In this document: piece by piece, positions 10,711 through 30,818 of the stretch
Layout of the letters: every line of letters starts with the position of its first letter
Numbering within the stretch: the first letter of the stretch is position 1
From: Nostoc sp. PCC 7120 = FACHB-418
GTDB taxonomy: Bacteria; Cyanobacteriota; Cyanobacteriia; Cyanobacteriales; Nostocaceae
Direction: 5' to 3'
DNA: 32,000 nt
Assembly (NCBI RefSeq): GCF_000009705.1
Contig: NC_003272.1
Coordinates: 3,720,001-3,752,000 of the forward strand
Notes under the pieces: generated by a model
What the model saw: only the letters and a program-made list of their open reading frames with translations
Database searches by the model: none
What the model was told of the DNA's origin: nothing
Position numbers and translations under genes: made by a program

Positions 10711-11979
10711 CTATCTGCCACGATCGCGTTCTAAATCATCAATCACTTTCTGCATATACCACTCTTCCGACATCCCCGGTTGGTAATCTTTTTGCTGCTG
10801 AATTAATCTTTGAGCAATTTCCCAATACCCGCCAACCAACCGCAGGAGTTTTTGACGCAACACATTCGACTTTTGTTGCTTATATTCAGGAACGGATGTC
10901 TGAATTTGTTTGAGGCTATCTTGGGTTAGTTGGTAATTTTCCCAGTCTTGTTGTTCACAAAAGATACTAGCTGCACGTTGATAGTCAGCAACGGCGTTTT
11001 GCATTTCTTCGAGGAAAGTGTGAGTTATGCCACGATTGTAGTGAGCTTGGGCATCATTGGGGTTAATTTGCAACGCTTTGCCATAGTCTTGAATAGCACC
11101 TAGATAATTACCCATTGCGCGATAGGTATTTCCTCTGGCAACATAACCTAAGGTGTCTTCTGGCTGCATTTGAATGGCTTGATGAAAATCAGCGATCGCA
11201 CCTTGATGATCACCTAATAGAGAACGTGCTTTACCTCGGTTACGATAGACGGCTGCATCCTGAAAGTTTAATTGTAATGCTTGGTTAAAATCAGCGATCG
11301 CTTCTCGATAGTTCCCCATTTTGCACCGCACCACTCCCCGACAGCAATAGGCTTGAGCATCTTGAGGATCGGTTTGTAATATCCAGTTTAAATCGGCTAT
11401 GGCTTCTCTGGTGTCGCCTTTTTCGGCTTTGTCTAATAGTTGGGTAAAATATTCGTTAACAGATTTTATGGGGGCAATGGTAGCTTTTATAGGCTGTATG
11501 GTAGCTTGTTTTGCTGGCTGTAACTGTTTAATTTTCTCTAGACACAGACGACAATTTTCTTGGTCTTTTTGCTGCAAGTATAATTCCGCAGCTTTTTTAA
11601 AACTAGCGATCGCATTTTGAATATATCCCTGTTTGCGCTGCACCGTCCCCCGTAAGCTATGAGCCGCAGCATAATTAATATTCAGTCGAATCGCCTGTTC
11701 TATATCTTCTAGCGCCCCCGGTAAATTTTTCAGCGCCAACCTTGCTAATGCGCGACAGTAATATGCTTCTACACTTTCAGGGTTTATCTTGATAACTTCA
11801 GTGTAATCTGACACAGCCAAAAGAATTGCCCCTGAGTCGTAATATGCTAAACCTCTTTGTAAATAAGCTTCAGCAAAATAAGGAGCAAGTTTTAAAGCAC
11901 GGCTAAACTCCTCAATGGCTCCAGCGTAGTCTTTTTGTTTAGCTTTTTCCAGTCCCTGGTTATAAAACTCGTTATTCAT
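10711..11979 (-). CDS. Tetratricopeptide (TPR) repeat protein
   Basis: It contains many 34-aa repeats of the A..Y..G.....A..D..KAL.L.P pattern in two blocks, followed by a non-TPR C-terminal tail of about 55 aa (…WYMQKVIDDLERDRGR). Confidence 0.85.
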   Translation of the reverse strand: MNNEFYNQGLEKAKQKDYAGAIEEFSRALKLAPYFAEAYLQRGLAYYDSGAILLAVSDYTEVIKINPESVEAYYCRALARLALKNLPGALEDIEQAIRLNINYAAAHSLRGTVQRKQGYIQNAIASFKKAAELYLQQKDQENCRLCLEKIKQLQPAKQATIQPIKATIAPIKSVNEYFTQLLDKAEKGDTREAIADLNWILQTDPQDAQAYCCRGVVRCKMGNYREAIADFNQALQLNFQDAAVYRNRGKARSLLGDHQGAIADFHQAIQMQPEDTLGYVARGNTYRAMGNYLGAIQDYGKALQINPNDAQAHYNRGITHTFLEEMQNAVADYQRAASIFCEQQDWENYQLTQDSLKQIQTSVPEYKQQKSNVLRQKLLRLVGGYWEIAQRLIQQQKDYQPGMSEEWYMQKVIDDLERDRGR

Positions 11980-18322: not shown

Positions 18323-19015
18323 ATGTTTTTTCACAAGAAAGAACCGATTCACGTTGTAAATATCGGTGAAGCAAACCCTCGTTTTGCTCAATTGCTTTTA
18401 GAGCAATTTGGTGGAGCGACAGGAGAACTATCAGCAGCTTTACAATACTGGGTGCAATCATTCCACGTTGAAAACGCGGGAATTAAAGATATGCTGCAAG
18501 ATATTGCCATCGAAGAATTTAGCCATTTAGAGATGGTTGGCAAACTCATCGAAGCGCATACGAAAAACGTGGATCAAACAGAGGCCTATAAAAGTACTCT
18601 CTTTGCTGTAAGGGGTATGGGGCCTCATTTTCTAGATAGTCAAGGTAATGCTTGGACAGCAAGTTACCTCAATGAAGGTGGAGATGTAGTTCGGGATTTG
18701 AGAGCGAACATTGCAGCTGAAGCGGGAGCGCGTCAAACCTACGAAGAGCTAATCAAACTATCACCAGATGAAGGAACGAAGCAAACTCTAGTTCATCTCC
18801 TCACACGAGAAATTTCTCATACCCAGATGTTTATGAAAGCTTTAGATTCACTGGGTAAATTAACAGATCCATTCTTCGGTAATGTCCAACCCGACGAAAC
18901 AGTGGCGCTCTACTATAACCTATCATCCAATGGGAACGGTCATGATGAACGTGGCCCTTGGAACTCTGAGCCAGCATTCAAATATGTTGCTAACCCACTA
19001 GAAAAACATTCCTAA
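18323..19015 (+). CDS. Manganese catalase
   Basis: LLLEQFGGATGELSAALQYW and the EEFSHLEMV ferritin-like di-metal motifs are present, and the length is 230 aa. The N-terminus MFFHKKE resembles the KatB-type Mn-catalase of Anabaena as I remember it. Confidence 0.9.
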   Translation: MFFHKKEPIHVVNIGEANPRFAQLLLEQFGGATGELSAALQYWVQSFHVENAGIKDMLQDIAIEEFSHLEMVGKLIEAHTKNVDQTEAYKSTLFAVRGMGPHFLDSQGNAWTASYLNEGGDVVRDLRANIAAEAGARQTYEELIKLSPDEGTKQTLVHLLTREISHTQMFMKALDSLGKLTDPFFGNVQPDETVALYYNLSSNGNGHDERGPWNSEPAFKYVANPLEKHS

Positions 19016-19239: not shown

Positions 19240-19968
19240 GTGATTGTGAATGCAACACCAACCGGATGGGAAGTGATTTATCATCGTTCCCACGCTTTGT
19301 TAGCAGCGCAAATAGCAGGACAATGGCAACGAAAAAACGCTCCAGCTAGAATATACGAAACCTTAGCCGCAATTTCTCATCATGATGATTTAGAGAAAGA
19401 ATGGGAGGAAAATAATTTGACTCAAGCAGGCGCGCCAATGGATTTCATGATGAACAAAGAAGCTTCTGTGGAAAAACTGGCGAGTCTCATTAAAAATGCT
19501 CGTTACCGGGGACGATGGGTAACTTTATTAATTTCTATGCACATTAGCCGCTTGACGGAACCAAAACGGGGACAGTCGGCTGAATTAGATGCTTTTTTAG
19601 ATGAACAAATAGAGAATCAACGGCGTTGGCGTGAAGAACTGGGGATAGAAAAAGATGAAGTAGATGCAGCTTATGCTTTCATGCAGTGGTGCGATCGCCT
19701 GTCTCTCATCTTATGCCAAAAAGAACTACCTGCGGATGAACGGTTTTTAGAAATTAGTAAAGGCCCCGACGGTCAACGCTATGACATCATGCAACGTAGC
19801 GATAATTTAGTCACAGTCAAACCTTGGCCTTTTGAAGACGATAAGTTTACGGTTAATGTCGAAGCTTGCGACTTACAACAGGCCAAATTTGCGAGTAACA
19901 GCAAACTAACTCAAGCACTACAAACCGCCCCAATCAAGGTGCTAGAGTGGACTTTCGTTAAAAAGTAA
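19240..19968 (+). CDS. DUF3891-family protein (HD-like motif SHHDD)
   Basis: A GTG start follows an AGGAG RBS. The N-terminus WEVIYHRSHALLAAQIAGQW and the motif AISHHDD match my recollection of DUF3891. Confidence 0.7.
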   Translation: MIVNATPTGWEVIYHRSHALLAAQIAGQWQRKNAPARIYETLAAISHHDDLEKEWEENNLTQAGAPMDFMMNKEASVEKLASLIKNARYRGRWVTLLISMHISRLTEPKRGQSAELDAFLDEQIENQRRWREELGIEKDEVDAAYAFMQWCDRLSLILCQKELPADERFLEISKGPDGQRYDIMQRSDNLVTVKPWPFEDDKFTVNVEACDLQQAKFASNSKLTQALQTAPIKVLEWTFVKK

Positions 19969-19982
19969 CAATTTGCCAATAA

Positions 19983-20054
19983 TTAAAAAGCATCTGGGAG
20001 TGTTGCCGTGTTTCCACCCCAGATGCTTTTTAGTTTCAACTTGCTCCTCACACA
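19983..20054 (-). ncRNA. yfr2: Yfr2-family sRNA, copy 1
   Basis: The minus strand reads GUGUGAGGAGCAAGUUGAAACUAAAAAGCAUCUGGGGUGGAAACACGGCAACACUCCCAGAUGCUUUUUAA. It has the 5' GUGAGGAG box, a GGAAACA loop and a terminator U-tract. An extended -10 (TGATATCCT) lies at 20060..20068. The ends are approximate. Confidence 0.75.
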
Positions 20055-20059
20055 ACTAG

Positions 20060-20068
20060 AGGATATCA
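20060..20068 (-). promoter_or_regulatory. Extended -10 element (TGaTATCCT) for Yfr2 copy 1
   Basis: A TGnTAnnnT element ends 6-8 nt upstream of the GUGUGAGGAG 5' box. The same arrangement is found at all four copies. Confidence 0.6.
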
Positions 20069-20142
20069 CTTGTTATTTTATTTAGCAAGTATATTGTATG
20101 ACACTTTGCCAACTGCACAGAAAACTCTCAGTGTAGCCTCAA

Positions 20143-20215
20143 TTAAAAAGCGCCTGGGAGTGTTGCCGTGTTTCCACCCCAGACGCTTTTTATTTTTAAC
20201 TTGCTCCTCACACAC
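20143..20215 (-). ncRNA. yfr2: Yfr2-family sRNA, copy 2
   Basis: The minus strand reads GUGUGUGAGGAGCAAGUUAAAAAUAAAAAGCGUCUGGGGUGGAAACACGGCAACACUCCCAGGCGCUUUUUAA. It is identical to copy 3 over about 80 nt. An extended -10 (TGTTATTGT) lies at 20222..20230. Confidence 0.75.
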
Positions 20216-20221
20216 AAATAA

Positions 20222-20230
20222 ACAATAACA
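20222..20230 (-). promoter_or_regulatory. Extended -10 element (TGtTATTGT) for Yfr2 copy 2
   Basis: It has the same TGnTAnnnT form and position as at the other copies. Confidence 0.55.
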
Positions 20231-20346
20231 CTGGCAATCATAAATAGTAAATCTATCCTGTGACAGTTTGCTATCTGCACAAAACAGGAGTATTTCGGCG
20301 GAATTTTAACATTCCTGTCCACTGGGACAACTGACACGCACAGCGC

Positions 20347-20421
20347 AATAAAAAAGCGCCTGGGAGTGTTGCCGTGTTTCCACCCCAGACGCTTTTTATT
20401 TTTAACTTGCTCCTCACACAC
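20347..20421 (-). ncRNA. yfr2: Yfr2-family sRNA, copy 3
   Basis: Its sequence is the same as copy 2. An extended -10 (TGATACTTT) lies at 20428..20436. Confidence 0.75.
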
Positions 20422-20427
20422 AAATAA

Positions 20428-20436
20428 AAAGTATCA
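20428..20436 (-). promoter_or_regulatory. Extended -10 element (TGaTACTTT) for Yfr2 copy 3
   Basis: It has the same TGnTAnnnT form and position as at the other copies. Confidence 0.55.
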
Positions 20437-20833
20437 CTTATTTTTTGAGAAGACAAGTATAATGCGTGACTCTTTATGAATTCTTTAAAGAAAATATCGG
20501 GATCGGTAATAACTGAGTAAAAATTCTTAACATAAATAGGCTACCTGTTGCCTGGTTAAGCTGATATTAACGCAACAGTATGTGAATCTAACAAAGCTAT
20601 AATTTTAAAGGCAACATTAACTAGACTGCCAAAAAAAGCTACCGAAGAGATGAAGTTGTATTTATGAACTTTGTAAAACACCAAGTTATAAAAGTTACCT
20701 ATTTTCCCCGTCCCTACTTCAAAATTGAAATTTCCGACTAATCAATCTGTAATATATATCCCAAGATTGTTGCCGCTTGCAAAAAAACACTTGATTTTTC
20801 ATAAAACCGTTACTGCCAAGGATTAATTGCAGT

Positions 20834-23800
20834 ATGTCAAATATCCAGCGCTCTCATTTGCAGCGTTACTGTATCTCTATTGTGTCGGTATTATTGGCGC
20901 TGTTGCTAGGCTTAACGCTGGGAAGATATTTAAAAGTAGAGATTTCACCACTGTTTTTTGCATCTGTAGTCTTTAGTAGTTGGTACGGCGGATTAGCACC
21001 AGGTTTAGTTGCTACAGTCTTGGCTATTTTAGTTAAGAATTACTTTTTTATTACACCATTCAACTCAATAGCAGTTAGCCAAGGTAATGATTTACTCAAT
21101 TTAATCGTGTTTGCTTCTGTAGCAGTATTAATTAGTTCATTAAATTTGCAAGTCCTTACGGCAAGGGAAGTGTCTGAGGCAAAATTGGGTAAGTTGAAGG
21201 TGAATTATCGCCAATTGTTAGAGACAGCCTATGAAGGTATTTGGATATTTGACAGTGAAGGAAAGACAGAATATGTCAGCCCTCAGCTAGCCCAAATACT
21301 TGGTTACAGTGTAGAACGAATAGGCGAATTCTCAATTTTTAATTTTCTAGAACCCCAGGCGCGTTTGGAAATTGAGCAATGGCTAGAGCAACAGCAAAAG
21401 TACAATCACCAAACTAAACAGCAGTTTGATTTACGTTTACAACGCCGCGATGGAGCCTCACTTTGGGTAATTGTTTCTCTCAGTTCCATACTGGATAAGC
21501 ATAGAAGATTTTCTGGTGCAGTTGCCATGCTAACTGATATTACAGAGCATAAGCACGAACAAGCAGAACCTGACCTCGAACGTCAACGCCTGCGCGCCAT
21601 CCTTGATATTCTACCAATGGGAGTAGTGATTTCTGACGCTAAAGGACAGCTTTTAGAAATTAATCCTGGCGTGAAAGCGATTTGGGGAGAAGATGCGCCA
21701 TTGCTCGATAATACTAGCCAATATCATCAATATAAAGGATGGTGGCCGGATACAGGTCAACCCCTGACAGCCGCAGAATGGACACTAGCTCGTACCCTAG
21801 CTACAGGTGAAGCGATAATTGGAGAAGAGATTGATATTGCAACATTTGATGGCAAGCGAAAAACCATCCTCAATTCTGCCGTCCCCATTTATGATGCCAC
21901 TGGAGCGATAGTTAATGCTGTAACTGTTAATGTAGATATTACTGAGCGTAAACGGGTAGAAGCCGCCTTAAGGCAGAGTGAAGCACTAGCCAAAGCACGG
22001 GCAGAAGAACTCGAAACGATCATGGAGACTGTGCCGGCTGCTGTCTGGATTGCCCATGATCCTCTTTGCCATTCCATGAGTGTCAATCGTGCTGCTTATG
22101 ACATGATGCGAGTACCACCAGGTTCTGTGATGACCGCAACCCCAGCTAGTGGAGGATATCCTTTTCCTTTTAAAATCCAAAAAAATGGTCAAGATATTCC
22201 TCTGAATGAGTTGGCAATGCAGCAAGCCGGACTGACTGGACAAGAAGTGGAAGCGGAAGTTGAATTTTTCTTCAGCCCGGAGGATGTACGACACATTTAC
22301 GGTAAGGCTATCCCCTTGTGCGATCCAGATGGTAATGTCCGAGGCGTGATTGGGGCGTTTTTGGATGTCACTGAACGCCAACAGTTGATGTCTTTGTTAC
22401 AACAAAAACAAGAATGGCTAGATTTAGCACAGAAGTCAGGAAAAATAGGCAGTTTTGACTGGAAATTAACTAGTAATATCAATGTTTGGTCACAAGAGTT
22501 AGAAGAAATTTATGGTTTGCAGCCTGGCGAGTTTGGCGGTACTTTTGCAGACTGGGCAAAACACGTTCATCCCGATGATTTAGCTAGGGTAGAAGTGGAA
22601 TTGCGGGAATTGTTGAACACAGGCTCAAAGGAATTTTTTAGTGATTTTCGCATCATTCGTCAGGATGGAAGTATTTGTTGGCTACAGTCGAGAGCCAGAG
22701 TTTTCTATGATGATCATGGTCAACCATTACGCATGGTAGGGGTAAATGTCGATGTGACTGAGCGCAAACAAGCAGAAGCAGCGCTACAGCAAAGTGAGGC
22801 TAGACTAAAACGATTATTGCAATCGAGTATTATTGGTATTATTGAGGCAGATCCAGAACGCATTAATTTTGCTAACGATGCCTTCTTGAAAATTGTCGGC
22901 TATACACATGAGGACTTGCTCACAGGAAAGTTGCGTTGGCAAGACATGACTCCACCAGAATACAGCGAACTGGATCAAGCCAAGGTGGAGGAAGTAATAA
23001 ACTCTGGGTTCTGCATTCCCTTTGAGAAAGAATATATCCGTAAAGACGGTTCTCGTGTTCCTATTTTATTAGGTGCTGCCCGATTGAGTTCCAGCCCGCT
23101 AACATGGGTTTGTTTTATTCTAGATTTAACCGAACGCAAACAAGCACAAGCAGCATTACAACAAAGTGAGTTGATGTTCCGCACATTAGCGGACACCATG
23201 CCGCAAATGTTTTGGATTACCCAGCCTAATGGCTACCACGAGTATTTCAATCAACGTTGGTATGATTATACAGGAACAACATTAGAACAAACCCAAGGCG
23301 CAGGGTGGCAAAATATTCTTCATCCTGATGATGTGCAACGCACTATAGAACAGTGGCAAGATAGCCTCGATACTGGCAAAGACTATGATATTGAGTATCG
23401 TTTGCGTCGTGCTGCTGATGGGGAATATCGTTGGCATTTAGGTAGAGCCTTTCCATTAAGAGATGAAAATGGTCGAATCTTGAAATGGTTTGGTTCCTGC
23501 ACAGATATTCACGACCAAAAGCTAGCAATTGAGGAACGCGCCCAGGCTTGGGAACAGGAACGTGCCGCCAGGATAGAGTTAGAACGAGCCAACCGGATGA
23601 AAGATGATTTCTTAGCAATAGTCTCTCACGAGTTGCGATCGCCTCTCAATCCCATTCTCGGTTGGGCAAAACTCCTCAAGAGTCGCAAACTGGATGCACT
23701 CAAGACTAATCAAGCCCTAGAAGTTATCGAACGCAATGCCAAATTACAAGCCCGGTTAATCGACGATTTACTAGATGTTTCCCGGATTTTACGCGGTAAG

Positions 23801-24783: not shown

Positions 24784-24855
24784 AATTAAAAAGCGCTCAG
24801 AAGTGTTACCGTGTTTCCACTCTAAGCGCTCTTAATTTCAACTTGCTCCTCACAC
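24784..24855 (-). ncRNA. yfr2: Yfr2-family sRNA, copy 4 (divergent stem, conserved loop and 5' box)
   Basis: The minus strand reads GUGUGAGGAGCAAGUUGAAAUUAAGAGCGCUUAGAGUGGAAACACGGUAACACUUCUGAGCGCUUUUUAAUU. An extended -10 (TGTTATCTT) lies at 24862..24870. Confidence 0.72.
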
Positions 24856-24861
24856 TATTAG

Positions 24862-27035: not shown

Positions 27036-28004
27036 ATGACCTATTTAGAAACAGCCGCACAATTTTATAGCGAAGTTGCCCAAACGCCGCAAGTGGGGCT
27101 GTGTTGTGTTCAAAGTACACCTCTACAACTACCAGGGCTGAAAATTCCTTTACCCATGCAGGAGATGAACTATGGTTGTGGAACCACTGTTCATCCTACG
27201 GAACTTGGCAAGCAACCTACCGTCTTGTATGTTGGTGTGGGTGGTGGGTTAGAAGCATTGCAATTTGCTTATTTTTCTCGTCGCCCTGGTGCTGTGATTG
27301 CAGTTGAACCAGTTGCCGCGATGCGAGAAGCAGCAGCACGCAACCTAGAAATGGCTTTAACAGACAACCCTTGGTTTGACAGCAGTTTTGTAGAGATTCG
27401 TGAAGGAGATGCCTTTAATTTACCTGTGGCTGATGGGTCAGTTGATATCGTCGCTCAAAATTGTTTGTTTAATATTTTCGAGCCTGAAGATTTGACCCGT
27501 GCGTTAAAGGAAGCGTATCGGGTGTTAAAGCCTGGTGGACGGTTGCAAATGAGTGACCCTATTGCCACCAGTCCCGTCCCTGCACATTTGCAACAAGATG
27601 AACGGTTGCGCGCTATGTGTTTGTCTGGCGCACTTACCTACGAAGAATACACCCAGCGTATCATTGATGCAGGCTTTGGTCAGATTGAAATTCGGGCGCG
27701 TCGTCCTTATCGCTTACTAGATTCCCAAACTTATAACTTAGAAACGCATTTACTTTTAGAAAGTCTCGATTCCGTCTCATTCAAAGTGCCTATGCCAGAA
27801 GATGGCGCTTGCATTTTTACTGGTAGAACTGCAATTTATGCCGGTTGTGACGCATTTTTTGATGACAAAGCCGGACATATCCTACAACGTGGCATTCCGG
27901 CAACCGTATGCGATAAAACTGCTGCTAAACTAGCAACTGTAAAGCCAAAAGAAGTAATAATTACTGATTCTACTTGGCATTATAACGGTGGTGGTTGCTG
28001 TTAA
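27036..28004 (+). CDS. arsM: ArsM-like SAM-dependent arsenite methyltransferase (arsenosugar-cluster type)
   Basis: The SAM motif I is VLYVGVGGG. Cysteines sit in ArsM-like contexts (LCCV, NYGCGT, AQNCLFN, AMCLSGA). There is a C-terminal GGGCC tail. The gene is adjacent to an ArsS-type radical SAM gene. Confidence 0.7.
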   Translation: MTYLETAAQFYSEVAQTPQVGLCCVQSTPLQLPGLKIPLPMQEMNYGCGTTVHPTELGKQPTVLYVGVGGGLEALQFAYFSRRPGAVIAVEPVAAMREAAARNLEMALTDNPWFDSSFVEIREGDAFNLPVADGSVDIVAQNCLFNIFEPEDLTRALKEAYRVLKPGGRLQMSDPIATSPVPAHLQQDERLRAMCLSGALTYEEYTQRIIDAGFGQIEIRARRPYRLLDSQTYNLETHLLLESLDSVSFKVPMPEDGACIFTGRTAIYAGCDAFFDDKAGHILQRGIPATVCDKTAAKLATVKPKEVIITDSTWHYNGGGCC

Positions 28005-28019
28005 TTTATACTCCTGAAA

Positions 28020-28979
28020 ATGTTGTTAATTAGTCTATTTATTGCTACCCTGTTCCTGGCTTATGCTAATGGAGCTAATGACAATTTTAAGGGTGTAGCT
28101 ACGCTGTTTGGTAGTCGGACAACAAGCTACCAATCAGCAATTTTGTGGGCAACTTTTACGACTTTTGCAGGTTCTTTGACTGCTACTTATTTAGGTAGGA
28201 CAATAGTTAAAGAGTTTACTGGTAAGGGTATTCTCCCAGATGCGATCGCCAATGCACCAGAGTTTCATTTAGCCGTGGCGATCGCATCTGGCTTGACGGT
28301 AGTACTGGCTACCACGACAGGATTTCCCATTTCCACATCCCACAGTTTAATCGGTGCAATGTTTGGTGCTGGGCTAGTAGCTTTTGGACTCCAGGTAAAT
28401 TTTGCCATTTTAGGAATCTATTTCATTTTTCCCTTATTATTAAGTCCTATTATTGCTATTGCCTTAAGTGCAGGAATTTACAGTTTAATTAATTACTTAA
28501 ATATTAAGCTGAATTGGCAGTTAAATCAAAAAATAATTGATACTATTCATTATATCAGTGCTGGTACATTTAGCTTCGCTAGAGGATTTAATGATACTAC
28601 TAAAATTGTCTCCCTAGTCCTAATTATCGATTATTTCTCACTTTCTGGAGCAATGATTACTATCGCAATGGCTATGGGTCTCGGTGGTTTACTCAACTCT
28701 CAAAAAATTGCTGAAACCATGAGTAACAAAATTACCTCCATGAATCGTATCCAGGGGGTATCTGCTAATATCATTACTAGTATTCTAGTGATTCTTGCTA
28801 GTAATTTTGGGTTGCCTATATCTACAACTCATGTCGCAGTATCTTCTATTTTTGGTGTAGGATTAATTGGTAGTAAAGCCAATAAATATATTTTTTATCA
28901 AATTTTATTAGTCTGGTTCATCAACTTGCCTATTGCCACAATTATTGGCGGAATCACTTATAGATTATTACAAGGTTAG
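28020..28979 (+). CDS. PiT/PHO4-family inorganic anion (phosphate-type) permease
   Basis: Two PHO4-type half-repeat signatures are present (YANGANDNFKGVATLFG and FARGFNDTTKIVSL). The protein is hydrophobic throughout and 319 aa long. Confidence 0.8.
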   Translation: MLLISLFIATLFLAYANGANDNFKGVATLFGSRTTSYQSAILWATFTTFAGSLTATYLGRTIVKEFTGKGILPDAIANAPEFHLAVAIASGLTVVLATTTGFPISTSHSLIGAMFGAGLVAFGLQVNFAILGIYFIFPLLLSPIIAIALSAGIYSLINYLNIKLNWQLNQKIIDTIHYISAGTFSFARGFNDTTKIVSLVLIIDYFSLSGAMITIAMAMGLGGLLNSQKIAETMSNKITSMNRIQGVSANIITSILVILASNFGLPISTTHVAVSSIFGVGLIGSKANKYIFYQILLVWFINLPIATIIGGITYRLLQG

Positions 28980-29021
28980 CAACACTCCCATATCTTAACT
29001 TATATTCAGGAATAGTCATCA

Positions 29022-30029
29022 ATGACAACTACACCAAGCCCTACCATAAATACAAAAATAACTCCTTTTAACTCTAAGTTAAATTCTCCTTTAATCAAAC
29101 AAGAAATCAATGTTTTACAAATTAATTTAGGTAAACGCTGTAATCTTGCTTGTACACACTGTCATGTTGAAGCTAGCCCAAAACGCACAGAAGAGTTAAC
29201 AGCAGAAATCTGCCAACAGTTAATCGAGGTAATTCACCGATTCCCGCAAATTCAAATTGTCGATTTAACTGGCGGCGCACCAGAAATGAACTATGGATTT
29301 AAGCCATTAGTAGCAGCCGCACGCCAAAATAATAAACAGGTAATTGTCCGTTCCAATTTAACTATTTATTTTGTGGAGGGGTTTAACGATTTACCTGAAT
29401 ATTTTGCTGCCAACAAAATCAGAATTGTAGCATCCATGCCTTGCTACCTAGCAGATAATGTCGATAAAATGCGTGGTACAGGTGTATTTGATGATTCCAT
29501 TAAAGCTTTACAATGGCTAAATCAAGTTGGCTATGGCAGAGACCCCAGTTTAATTTTAGATTTGGTTTATAATCCCCAACTACCTACAAGTGAAAAATTT
29601 GCCCTAACCCCTGAGCAAAGTAAATTGGAGCAAGACTATAAAACCTTCTTACAAGAACATTTCCATATTAAATTTAACAACCTGTTCACGATTACTAACC
29701 TACCAGTTGGCAGAACCAAACTCTATTTAGAACGGAAAAAACTAGAAACCAGTTATTTGCAGTTTTTAGAATTGCATTTCAACCCGCATACAGTAGGAAA
29801 TTTAATGTGTCGCAATCAATTATCTATAGACTATTTAGGTAATATATATGATTGTGATTTTAATCAGATGATGAATTTACCAGCGAAAACTCTGAATGGC
29901 GAAACTCTGACTGTTGCTAAATTAATCGAGGCTAGTAGTTTGGATCTGATTAATGAAATTCAAACTGCAAACTATTGCTATGGTTGTACTGCTGGTTGTG
30001 GTTCTAGTTGCAGTGGTGCTTTGGTATGA
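29022..30029 (+). CDS. arsS: Radical SAM / Cys-rich-domain protein, ArsS type (arsenosugar biosynthesis)
   Basis: The CxxxCxxC motif is CNLACTHC. The C-terminal Cys-rich tail CYGCTAGCGSSCSG matches my memory of the radical-SAM/Cys-rich (seleno)protein family found beside ArsM-like methyltransferases. This is the all-Cys form, with no in-frame TGA. Confidence 0.75.
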   Translation: MTTTPSPTINTKITPFNSKLNSPLIKQEINVLQINLGKRCNLACTHCHVEASPKRTEELTAEICQQLIEVIHRFPQIQIVDLTGGAPEMNYGFKPLVAAARQNNKQVIVRSNLTIYFVEGFNDLPEYFAANKIRIVASMPCYLADNVDKMRGTGVFDDSIKALQWLNQVGYGRDPSLILDLVYNPQLPTSEKFALTPEQSKLEQDYKTFLQEHFHIKFNNLFTITNLPVGRTKLYLERKKLETSYLQFLELHFNPHTVGNLMCRNQLSIDYLGNIYDCDFNQMMNLPAKTLNGETLTVAKLIEASSLDLINEIQTANYCYGCTAGCGSSCSGALV

Positions 30030-30126
30030 CAGGGAACACTCAGTTGCAAATAATTGTTCTATGTCAGCAAAGGTTAATTTTATTACAAACAGTGTTATTT
30101 TGCATTGAGAATAGCTGAGATGCGTT

Positions 30127-30132
30127 TATGAT
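30127..30132 (+). promoter_or_regulatory. -10 box TATGAT (with TTGAGA at 30105..30110, 16-nt spacer) for Yfr1-like copy A
   Basis: The hexamer lies 21 nt upstream of the CUCCUCACAC motif, the same distance as at copy B. Confidence 0.6.
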
Positions 30133-30138
30133 GTATTT

Positions 30139-30208
30139 AGTTTAAATCTCCTCACACCACATTAAAAAAACCGTAGATTACTCAATGTTTCTACGGTTTT
30201 TATTTTTT
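30139..30208 (+). ncRNA. yfr1: Yfr1-like sRNA, copy A
   Basis: The plus strand has ...UUUAAAU-CUCCUCACACCAC-AUU followed by the terminator AAAAAACCGUAGA(12-nt loop)UCUACGGUUUUUAUUUUUU. The motif is at 30148..30157. The 5' end is inferred from the -10 box. The canonical Yfr1 5' stem-loop is at best a weak AUUUA/UAAAU hairpin. Confidence 0.65.
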
Positions 30209-30345
30209 GATTAGAGATAAAAATATTACTCTTTAGCAAATATTTAATCCAAAGTACAACCTATCTAAGCGCCAATTATTAATTTTTTCCCAAAAAATCC
30301 TGTTACCAAAATTGTTACAAGTGTATCACTGCCGGGCAGTTGCCC

Positions 30346-30351
30346 TATGAT
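30346..30351 (+). promoter_or_regulatory. -10 box TATGAT for Yfr1-like copy B
   Basis: The hexamer lies 21 nt upstream of the CUCCUCACAC motif. The palindrome ACTGCCgGGCAGT at 30328..30340 sits in the -35 region. Confidence 0.55.
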
Positions 30352-30357
30352 GATCTA

Positions 30358-30418
30358 TTAGTTAAGCTCCTCACACCACACAAAAAGCCGCGAAACAACT
30401 AGTTTCGTGGTTTTTTTA
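30358..30418 (+). ncRNA. yfr1: Yfr1-like sRNA, copy B
   Basis: The plus strand has ...GUUAAG-CUCCUCACACCAC-ACAAAAAG followed by the terminator CCGCGAAAC(aacua)GUUUCGUGGUUUUUUU. The motif is at 30367..30376. The terminator sequence is unrelated to that of copy A, but the single-stranded box is identical. Confidence 0.65.
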
Positions 30419-30605
30419 TGTTGTATAGTCAGGGGCATAAGTTTTAGATGAGCGCTGAGTAAATATTCTTCCCCTGCTCCCTACCTTCTCTCTCAAGCAA
30501 ATGCAAACAACCGTTAAACTTCATTGCGAAGTAAGAAGCGAAGTGAAACAACGTGATAAGTTTTGATGATGTGACGCAATCGCACCAGAGGATAAGGAGA
30601 ATACG

Positions 30606-30818
30606 GTGGCAATCGAATCAAACTTATTAAACGGCACAGTTCTACCAAAAGAAGAAATTAGCGAATATGTTGCCAACCTCCAGCTACACATGACTTTGCA
30701 AGCACGTAATCTAGTTCCACCCTTAAGGCAGACTCAGACTATAGAAGACAGTAGACAACAATTGCTGCATCAAACCCAAGCTAATTTTGAGAAGCAGGCT
30801 TCTCGGCAAAGATTATAA
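30606..30818 (+). CDS. Small hydrophilic hypothetical protein (70 aa)
   Basis: A GTG start is preceded by an AAGGAG RBS with a 6-nt spacer. A structured terminator follows. I recognise no family. Confidence 0.5.
   Translation: MAIESNLLNGTVLPKEEISEYVANLQLHMTLQARNLVPPLRQTQTIEDSRQQLLHQTQANFEKQASRQRL

Follow-up and report, generated by a model that had tools for sequence, protein, structure and literature searches.

We examined a stretch of 32,000 nucleotides (nt) of the chromosome of Nostoc sp. PCC 7120 (3,720,001-3,752,000), referred to here as the window, in which a position is the chromosome coordinate minus 3,720,000. Downstream of the gene arsS, the window holds two adjacent plus-strand elements with the features of genes for small RNAs (sRNAs), which we call copy 1 and copy 2 (Table 1). 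Both carry the box CTCCTCACACCAC (30148-30160 and 30367-30379), with the identity between the copies reaching 14 nt (…CACA), and in both a TATGAT hexamer begins exactly 21 nt ahead of the box, in agreement with a preliminary description of this DNA. After the box comes a stem followed by a T-run, with the core stem being CCGTAGA/TCTACGG in copy 1 (30171-30177 / 30190-30196) and CCGCGAAAC/GTTTCGTGG in copy 2 (30388-30396 / 30402-30410). The same description placed an intrinsic terminator within 3-8 nt of each box. The terminators are present, at measured distances of 10 nt (copy 1) and 8 nt (copy 2) from the box to the core stem, or of 5 and 2 nt if the A:U extension is counted (stem starts 30166 and 30382). 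Minimum free energy (MFE) folds of both RNAs consist of an unpaired 5′ arm and then one 3′ terminator hairpin, and the same single hairpin was independently predicted by RNAalifold from 43 homologues. The leader ahead of the box measures 9 nt in copy 1, counted from a mapped start, and 7 nt in copy 2, counted from the homologous start.

Table 1 Features of the two sRNA genes, their promoters and the Yfr2 genes in the window (positions are those of the window)
Feature	Position	Strand	Evidence and details
Copy 1 degenerate repeat ATTAC-N7-GTTAT	30082..30098	+	-66 from box, same as in orthologues
Copy 1 promoter: TTGAGA (30105-30110), 16-nt spacer, TATGAT (30127-30132)	30105..30132	+	promoter scan, 10/12 matches; -10 conserved in type-A orthologues
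Copy 1 sRNA (type A), published start 3750139f	30139..30208	+	primary 5′ end A30139, stem end 30196, U-tract to ~30201-30208; covariance model 67.0 bits
Copy 1 seed box CUCCUCACACCAC	30148..30160	+	unpaired, mean P(unpaired) 0.99; column conservation 0.98
Copy 1 intrinsic terminator hairpin, A:U-extended core	30166..30201	+	MFE fold; type-A stem 90% paired, compensatory changes at 2 pairs
Copy 2 GTTAC-N7-GTTAC repeat	30302..30318	+	about -58 to -42 from predicted start; conservation 0.91-0.93; candidate transcription-factor site
Copy 2 -10 box TATGAT	30346..30351	+	conserved, type-B orthologues having TATGAT or TATCAT
Copy 2 sRNA (type B)	30360..30418	+	start A30360 of AGUUAAG predicted via homology with copy 1; 71.4 bits
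Copy 2 seed box CUCCUCACACCACAC (15 nt)	30367..30381	+	P(unpaired) 0.98; conservation 0.97-0.99
Copy 2 intrinsic terminator	30382..30416	+	terminator scan; 15-pair stem including A:U extension, 5-nt loop, U-tract
Yfr2-1 (Rfam Cyano-1, RF01701), published start 3740053r	19985..20053	-	Rfam 59.1 bits
Yfr2-2 (Cyano-1)	20145..20213	-	Rfam 57.9 bits
Yfr2-3 (Cyano-1)	20351..20419	-	Rfam 57.4 bits
Yfr2-4 (Cyano-1)	24790..24855	-	Rfam 49.4 bits

The start of copy 1 comes from published data. An unnamed predicted sRNA of 57 nt, 3750139->3750196 on the forward strand, appears in Table S3 of Brenes-Alvarez et al. 2016 (PMC4734099). Its first coordinate maps to A30139, seven nt past the first TATGAT, and its second to the last base of the copy 1 stem (30196). 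Since these coordinates fall exactly on landmarks of copy 1, copy 1 is the sRNA of transcription start site (TSS) 3750139f, and the plus-strand transcript foreseen in the preliminary description exists for this copy, with its primary 5′ end exactly at the predicted place. Differential RNA sequencing (dRNA-seq) in the same study gave 19 reads for copy 1 in the wild type (WT) at 0 h with ammonium and 133 at 8 h without nitrogen, and 15 and 83 reads, respectively, in the hetR mutant. The rise in both strains indicates that copy 1 is induced by nitrogen step-down, about 7-fold in WT, and that HetR is not needed. Lambrecht et al. 2019 (PMC6778093) names TSS 2515196r and TSS 3750139f of Nostoc as sRNAs with the Yfr1 motif, and the legend of Fig. 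S7 of that paper lists both as Yfr10 homologs. Copy 1 is thus already catalogued and recognised as a Yfr1-motif (Yfr10-like) sRNA. For copy 2, no published report was found in a literature search, and it appears to be an unreported gene.

We fetched the corresponding loci of 80 Nostocales species using arsS as the anchor. In 36 of the 80 loci, arsS is closely followed on its own strand by the exact 10-mer CTCCTCACAC. A covariance model (R1) was built from 43 sequences with the -10 box, an AGUUAAG leader, the box and the terminator in conserved register. It gave 67 plus-strand matches of 36-82 bits, consisting of 65 in the species loci and the two window copies. Among the 65, all lie within ~900 nt downstream of arsS except for one at ~1.4 kb, and no minus-strand score exceeded 32 bits. 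A minus-strand reading of the window elements, with the terminator first and GUGGUGUGAGGAG after it, reached 21 bits (copy 1) and 26.4 bits (copy 2), compared to 67.0 and 71.4 bits on the plus strand, where the mapped TSS also lies, and was rejected. Both the mapped 5′ end of copy 1 and the strand preference of the model therefore support two separate plus-strand sRNA genes, as first proposed.

The homologues belong to two types. Type A adjoins arsS and reads …TTTATGATG…tAGTTAAGT-box, whereas type B is more distant from arsS and has the sequence CTGTTACCAAAATTGTTACGAG…TTTATGATGATATTTAGTTAAG-box; the species loci contain 29 and 36 copies, respectively. Both types are present in 16 species, always in the order A then B, while 33 species have one type and 31 have none, so that 49 of the 80 other species retain the box in synteny, as the preliminary description required. 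Two-copy genomes are spread over Nostoc, Anabaena, Cylindrospermum, Desmonostoc, Komarekiella, Aulosira, Mojavia, Dendronalium and Chlorogloeopsis. We conclude from this wide distribution that the duplication is old and was followed by repeated losses. Besides copy 2, two findings appear to be new: many Nostocales have retained the pair as an ancient tandem duplication in fixed order, and both types have a promoter element in common (see below). Across 15 two-copy loci, conservation was 0.98-0.99 in the box, 0.81-0.97 in the coding end of arsS and 0.3-0.5 in the spacers. Together with a probability of being unpaired of 0.98-0.99, this upholds the earlier suggestion of selection on a single-stranded box. 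All box variants found in relatives (CUCCUUACACC, UUCCUCACACC and CUCCUCAUACC) are C->U transitions, so pairing with G remains possible (G·U).

A metagenome scan with the leader plus box as query yielded 32 loci, of which 22 adjoin arsS and 10 have no arsS in the available DNA. In eight of these ten, on examination, the promoter-plus-sRNA unit stands among unrelated genes; the other two were too short to judge. One of the fetched loci, from an Aulosira sp. metagenome-assembled genome (L082), has a single match to the CRISPR-DR15 repeat directly after arsS (11181-11217), where the sRNA genes sit elsewhere, and also contains 16 tRNA genes within 1.4 kb (19540-20980).

The stems of the two terminators were considered unrelated in the preliminary description, which saw in this a selection for having any terminator at all. 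We found a different history. Both stems start with CCG, and types A and B align in one register over their full length, with the terminator consensus AAAGCCGTGrA…yCACGGyTTTT. This single register and common consensus across species indicate that the differing terminators of the window are diverged homologues in an old pair of tandem paralogues. They give no hint of independent origins. The stems are supported by covariation. In the type A alignment (A1), 90% of the cells are paired and compensatory changes occur at 2 pairs, with 8-10 of 500 shuffles reaching its pairing, changed cells or covariation. In the type B alignment (A2), 97.2% are paired and compensatory changes occur at 5 of 10 pairs; four of five measures were reached by none of 500 shuffles and the fifth, the number of pairs changed on both sides, by two. 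The combined alignment (A3) is 90% paired with compensatory changes at 6 pairs (32 cells), and none of 500 shuffles reached its pairing, changed cells or covariation. Slid controls gave 36-50% pairing.

How do these genes relate to Yfr1? Voss et al. 2007 (PMC2190773) defines Yfr1 by a pair of stem-loops with an unpaired stretch of 16-20 nt between them that contains ACUCCUCACAC, and places its gene between guaB and trxA in Anabaena and Nostoc. The canonical Yfr1 of PCC 7120 is found at TSS 56433f, between guaB and trxA, and has the sequence AGCGGAGACGCAUGUUUCCGUU-CACUCCUCACACCACACU-CCGCCCGGACUACUGUUCGGGCGG (Table S6, PMC6974561). Its identity with the window copies is limited to CUCCUCACACCACAC (15 nt in copy 2, 14 nt in copy 1), with no similarity outside the box. 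The preliminary description viewed the two elements as a variant subtype of Yfr1, and they are indeed not canonical: they match 10 of the 11 bases of ACUCCUCACAC, the first being U in copy 1 and G in copy 2 rather than A, and neither has the 5′ stem-loop of 6-10 bp, which cannot form because only 9 or 7 nt precede the box. Of the 13-mer CACUCCUCACACC derived from an 89-genome alignment, 11 bases are matched and the region is unpaired, and both copies have the 3′ GC-rich hairpin with U-tail (a Rho-independent terminator) of Yfr1. A variant of Yfr1 by descent they are not. The Rfam Yfr1 covariance model (RF01116), a check suggested at the outset, found no match at the gathering score, at E<=10 on 29950-30550 (601 nt) or at E<=1 on the whole window, nor at the gathering score on seven orthologous loci. 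The guaB-yfr1-trxA synteny, with one orthologue per genome, is replaced by a position downstream of arsS. Neither copy is a Yfr1 orthologue. That they could nonetheless be true Yfr1 genes, duplicated and shortened, is suggested by the 14-15 nt in common with the Yfr1 of the same genome and by the terminator directly after the motif. This is refuted, however, on four defining features, by the missing RF01116 match, the lack of room for a 5′ stem-loop, the differing first base of the 11-mer and the separate canonical gene at 56433f between guaB and trxA, and we regard it as extremely improbable.

We consider it likely instead that these are two independent tandem genes for short trans-acting sRNAs of ~57-65 nt, of the loosely defined ‘Yfr10-like’ class, which carry the Yfr1 seed but are not Yfr1 orthologues, with copy 2 being an old paralogue of copy 1. 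The mark of the Yfr10-like class, a separate transcript with the motif that is not Yfr1, was found for copy 1, and such a transcript is predicted for copy 2 from its gene anatomy and conservation.

The promoter regions have an additional element in common, one that the preliminary description missed. In both types, GTnAC-N7-GTnAC is found 64-66 nt ahead of the box, about -57 to -41 from the start, mostly as TGTTAC-N6-TGTTAC and in some genomes as GTTAC-N7-GTAAC. The strict repeat has one match in the window, that of copy 2, with 0.09 expected by chance. In the 1.47 Mb of fetched loci it has 51 matches, 44 of which precede sRNAs of the arsS-linked family; five of the remaining seven are the same palindromic sites on the other strand, one is a promoter remnant and one is unrelated. 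No -35 box of copy 2 was recognisable in the promoter scan. Known regulatory sites were considered as the identity of the repeat. For NtcA (GTA-N8-TAC) no convincing match was found at either promoter, copy 1 having only GTG-N8-CAT centred near -41. HLR1, the site of RpaB, has a similar half-site with a period of 10 bp, as opposed to 12 bp here. CGRE1, attributed to PlmA/GntR, is GTTA-N13/14-TAAC with a central GTGTACAC-like core, and differs in both spacing and core. On Prochlorococcus yfr2 promoters CGRE1 starts at -55 to -57, flanked by GTTA…TAAC, and the GTnAC repeat resembles it in position.

Several other observations concern these promoters. A block conserved at 0.71-0.79, (T)ATGTCAtCAAAGG, occupies 30061-30075 and the equivalent position in type-A loci (e.g., L014, L068, L076), ~10 nt upstream of their GTnAC repeat, and is replaced by an A-tract in type B. 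A type-A subgroup from metagenomes (L089:2679, L100:3166, L113:2135 and L117:617) lacks the GTnAC repeat and has TGTAAAGAAATTTGCGGTA instead, with TATAAT, TATGAT, TAAGAT or TATCAT as the -10 box and a shorter terminator, which suggests that the promoter was rewired in one lineage. At another locus (L045:11118-11170), a complete type-B promoter (GTTACCAAAATTGTTAC … TTTATCAT) is followed past the -10 by unrelated sequence and no sRNA. This looks like a gene deletion or replacement that left the promoter behind; the locus ends ~190 nt beyond the element.

The window also contains the likely partners of these RNAs, four minus-strand genes for Yfr2, which were likewise absent from the first inventory. 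The 5′ end of Yfr2-1, GUGUGAGGAG, is an exact complement of the box. Yfr2 is listed at 3740053->3739990, reverse, in Table S3 of PMC4734099, where 3740053 is the G that opens GUGUGAGGAG (20053) and 3739990 falls on the final base in the terminator stem of Yfr2 (19990). The published primers for in vitro transcription of Yfr2 (PMC6974561) match the window copy exactly, and the same paper (mBio 2020) speaks of ‘four repeats’ of Yfr2 in PCC 7120, in agreement with our four Cyano-1 matches. The 10-mer CTCCTCACAC itself has seven exact sites in the window, all on the plus strand, and one further site with a single mismatch, where ~0.9 matches are expected with one mismatch allowed and none of 100 shuffles reached eight. 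The seven exact sites are copies 1 and 2, the complements of the four Yfr2 5′ ends, and one site (18797-18806, +) inside the reading frame of a Mn-catalase (…LVHLLTREISH…). The last has neither promoter nor terminator and was rejected as an sRNA, being probably a coding coincidence.

Three of the Yfr2 genes form a tandem array (19982-20423) whose starts are spaced by 160 and 206 nt. The array is located immediately downstream of the Mn-catalase gene and overlaps in part with the end of a plus-strand open reading frame (ORF; 19240-19968); the fourth gene lies 4.4 kb away (24787-24859). Yfr2-2 and Yfr2-3 are identical across 69 nt. Upstream of Yfr2-1, GTC-N8-TAC (GTCATACAATATAC; 20089-20102, -) is centred ~42-43 nt ahead of the published TSS. 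Promoters activated by NtcA have this geometry, in agreement with the induction of Yfr2 reported upon nitrogen deprivation. No Cyano-1 match was found within 10 kb at seven orthologous loci from other genera, indicating that Yfr2 genes close to the sRNA pair are a feature of the PCC 7120 lineage alone.

The box is perfectly complementary to nt 1-10 of Yfr2 (1-11 for copy 2) in all four Yfr2 copies. Cofolds of either copy with Yfr2 are 19-22 kcal/mol better than the separate monomers, and the terminators of both partners stay folded. In electrophoretic mobility shift assays, Nostoc Yfr2 binds Yfr1 via this motif (PMC6974561), and in Prochlorococcus the action of Yfr1 and Yfr10 is blocked by Yfr2, to which both bind (PMC6778093). 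We also compared predictions on nine 5′ untranslated region (5′UTR) constructs of Yfr1 targets (Table S5, PMC6974561). The arms of copies 1 and 2 were predicted to bind at the Yfr1 sites with similar energies, for example -29.7 (Yfr1), -28.8 (copy 1) and -30.4 (copy 2) kcal/mol on all2158, and -22.7, -24.3 and -22.9 kcal/mol, respectively, on alr4550. The leader AGUUAAG is nearly as conserved as the box in alignments A1-A3 (0.93-0.97) and lengthens the complementarity to Yfr2 by no more than one base pair. Transcription initiation, RNA stability or the binding of a protein may depend on it.

From these predictions a mechanism can be proposed. Each RNA consists of a leader of 7-9 nt (AGUU(U)AA…), an unpaired 5′ seed of 13-15 nt (CUCCUCACACCACAy) and a Rho-independent terminator. 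The anti-Shine-Dalgarno-like seed would pair with GUGUGAGGAG-type sites around ribosome-binding sites, overlapping the Yfr1 targetome, and the 5′ ends of the four Yfr2 copies, encoded 5-10 kb away, would sequester both RNAs. Copies 1 and 2 would thus add a regulated supply of the Yfr1 seed. Alternatively, the direction of control may be the reverse. The two RNAs would then serve chiefly to titrate Yfr2, or would be competitors of Yfr1 for binding to Yfr2 and to an RNA-binding protein (PatR, for example), and direct mRNA regulation would be secondary. No site in the window complements the box better than the Yfr2 5′ end (10-11 bp, perfect); in Prochlorococcus, the affinity of Yfr2 is higher for Yfr1 and Yfr10 than for an mRNA target (PMC6778093); and copy 1 and Yfr2 both go up on nitrogen step-down. 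Yet Prochlorococcus Yfr10 has an mRNA targetome of its own (PMC6778093), and binding of the copy 1 and 2 arms to the Yfr1 target constructs is predicted to be as good as that of Yfr1 itself. The present data do not separate the two directions of control, and we consider a primarily titrating role rather unlikely, though worth bearing in mind.

Upstream of the sRNA genes lies a cluster for arsenosugar biosynthesis (27036-30029), comprising arsM (578 bits), a permease of the PHO4 family and arsS (TIGR04167, 419 bits). The latter encodes the arsenosugar radical-SAM enzyme and has its stop at 30029. Over 12,979 nt, the window is identical to a contig coding for this same ArsS protein. A terminator scan found none between this stop and the copy 1 hairpin (30166). 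Transcripts that read through from the ars genes are therefore expected to have the Yfr1-type box in their 3′UTR, and the copy 1 hairpin probably also ends the ars operon, a double use that may explain the lasting linkage to arsS. Taken further, both elements could be cis-acting parts of the arsM-arsS operon, with the copy 1 hairpin as its terminator and the box as a 3′UTR element that acts on the ars transcript. Read-through from arsS would end at the copy 1 terminator and carry the box, and arsS and the sRNA genes are strongly linked (in 49 of 80 species, and at 22 of the 32 metagenome loci). A purely cis role is nevertheless very unlikely in our view, since copy 1 has a primary 5′ end 7 nt past a conserved -10 box, each unit has its own conserved promoter element, and the promoter-plus-sRNA unit also occurs away from arsS. 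In addition, no mRNA of the window contains an exact complement of the box, only the Yfr2 5′ ends being complementary. The roles of operon terminator and sRNA gene are compatible, and one terminator may well serve both.

Other assignments were tried and rejected. Copy 2 as a leader or attenuator of a 70-aa ORF at 30606 was set aside because a homologue of this ORF is found in only 1 of 80 loci, and weak Rfam matches to STnc40, STnc240, SpF39, trpB, Leu leader and DdR11 were discarded as reflecting only terminator or A/U-rich sequence.

Some of our findings speak against two working trans-acting sRNA genes. Copy 2 is missing from the table of PCC 7120 sRNAs with a TSS and a terminator (Table S3, PMC4734099), in which the next entry after 3750139 is 3754398. 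To be listed there, an sRNA needed >=8 reads at one 5′ end, had to be intergenic and had to have a terminator called by TransTermHP; under both nitrogen regimes, in WT and hetR, copy 2 must thus have had either <8 reads at one 5′ end or a terminator that was not called. Furthermore, 31 of the 80 species loci have no such genes at the arsS position, where they are dispensable or from which they have moved elsewhere. The GTnAC repeat has no known binding protein, its 12-bp period fitting neither HLR1 nor CGRE1. As for partners, a shuffled duplexfold control with Yfr2 did not discriminate, a method that ignores intramolecular structure and lets the terminators pair with each other, for which reason we relied on the perfect complementarity and the cofolds. 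The duplexes predicted for either copy with mRNAs or Yfr2 come from a seed that they have in common with Yfr1.

These points lead to a further explanation, that only copy 1 works in PCC 7120 and that copy 2 is a silent or decaying duplicate. Copy 2 would have qualified for the published list as an intergenic TSS but is not in it, it has no -35 box, and its gap from the -10 to AGUUAAG is 1 nt longer than in other type-B genes. Decay is difficult to reconcile, however, with a box, 5′ arm, -10, upstream repeat and terminator that are all intact, or with copy 2 outscoring copy 1 on the family model. Type B is also the more widespread type in the 80 species loci and has the strongest terminator covariation, and a perfect activator-type site without a -35 box is the look of a condition-specific promoter. 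We therefore think it unlikely that copy 2 is non-functional, and retain the interpretation of two sRNA genes.

The promoters themselves offer a possible reason for the difference between the copies. With a perfect repeat and no -35 box, copy 2 may be activator-dependent and expressed in conditions outside those sampled, whereas copy 1, with a degenerate repeat and a good -35 box, would be the one seen under two nitrogen regimes. It is conceivable, though we put it forward only tentatively, that GTnAC-N7-GTnAC is the operator of a dedicated factor that switches on one or both Yfr1-seed ‘booster’ copies under a specific stress, copy 2 being strictly dependent on this factor and silent in every PCC 7120 condition published so far, and that Nostocales have a three-layer circuit. 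If so, a constitutive Yfr1, its inducible seed paralogues and the Yfr2 sponge would jointly set the effective level of the anti-Shine-Dalgarno seed, and co-regulation or a common terminator could account for the tight linkage to the arsenosugar operon.

These genes bear on the biology of Yfr1, which controls cell-wall remodelling and heterocyst function in Nostoc. That a near-constitutive and very abundant RNA should act as a regulator is puzzling, and the current answer is its sequestration by Yfr2. Two more genes with the same 15-nt seed and other promoters mean that the cellular pool of the Yfr1 seed is not constant, and at least one of them, copy 1, is induced by nitrogen step-down. Phenotypes of Yfr1 knock-down or over-expression may consequently be buffered by copies 1 and 2. 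We further provide a covariance model and a census of the family, evidence for an old and widely kept pair, and a repeat that is specific enough to serve as bait for a regulator.

Compared with known systems, copies 1 and 2 are similar to Yfr1 in their unpaired seed, identical over 14-15 nt and followed directly by a Rho-independent terminator, in their size range, in their predicted sites on Yfr1 target 5′UTR constructs and in their complementarity to Yfr2. They differ in having the seed at the 5′ end without a 5′ stem-loop and in being located downstream of arsS, not between guaB and trxA. They also differ in expression, Yfr1 being near-constitutive and copy 1 inducible, and in distribution, the arsS-linked sRNAs being patchy (49 of 80 Nostocales loci) and Yfr1 universal. 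Tandem paralogous sRNA pairs with one seed are known from OmrA/OmrB in enterobacteria and PrrF1/PrrF2 in Pseudomonas. The arrangement is alike, with adjacent genes, an identical seed near the 5′ end, a diverged remainder, own promoters and a common regulator site, but there is no sequence relationship. Yfr2/Cyano-1 belongs to the same regulatory module, its 5′ ends being the exact complement of the box, but it is the opposite partner (the sponge), is encoded on the opposite strand and has a GGAAACA loop hairpin.

The closest relatives are the Yfr10-like sRNAs (Steglich 2008; PMC6778093), a class that includes Syr5 of Synechocystis as well as TSS 2515196r and TSS 3750139f of Nostoc PCC 7120. 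These are extra sRNAs with the Yfr1 motif that are otherwise little conserved relative to Yfr1, and copy 1 is a listed example. In contrast to the class as a whole, the arsS-linked family is well conserved within Nostocales, where a single covariance model can recognise it, and its second tandem paralogue and common promoter element were not previously described. Like the copies described here, as we envisage them, the Yfr10 RNAs of Prochlorococcus bind Yfr2 and have part of the Yfr1 targetome in common, and their genes in high-light Prochlorococcus lie close to yfr2, as do those of copies 1 and 2 in PCC 7120 (5-10 kb). The motif of Prochlorococcus Yfr10, however, is presented in a hairpin loop atop a stem, whereas in copies 1 and 2 it is on a free 5′ arm. 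The general picture of Yfr1, Yfr10 and Yfr2 drawn from Prochlorococcus is unchanged by our findings, which extend a known module rather than introduce a new kind of system.

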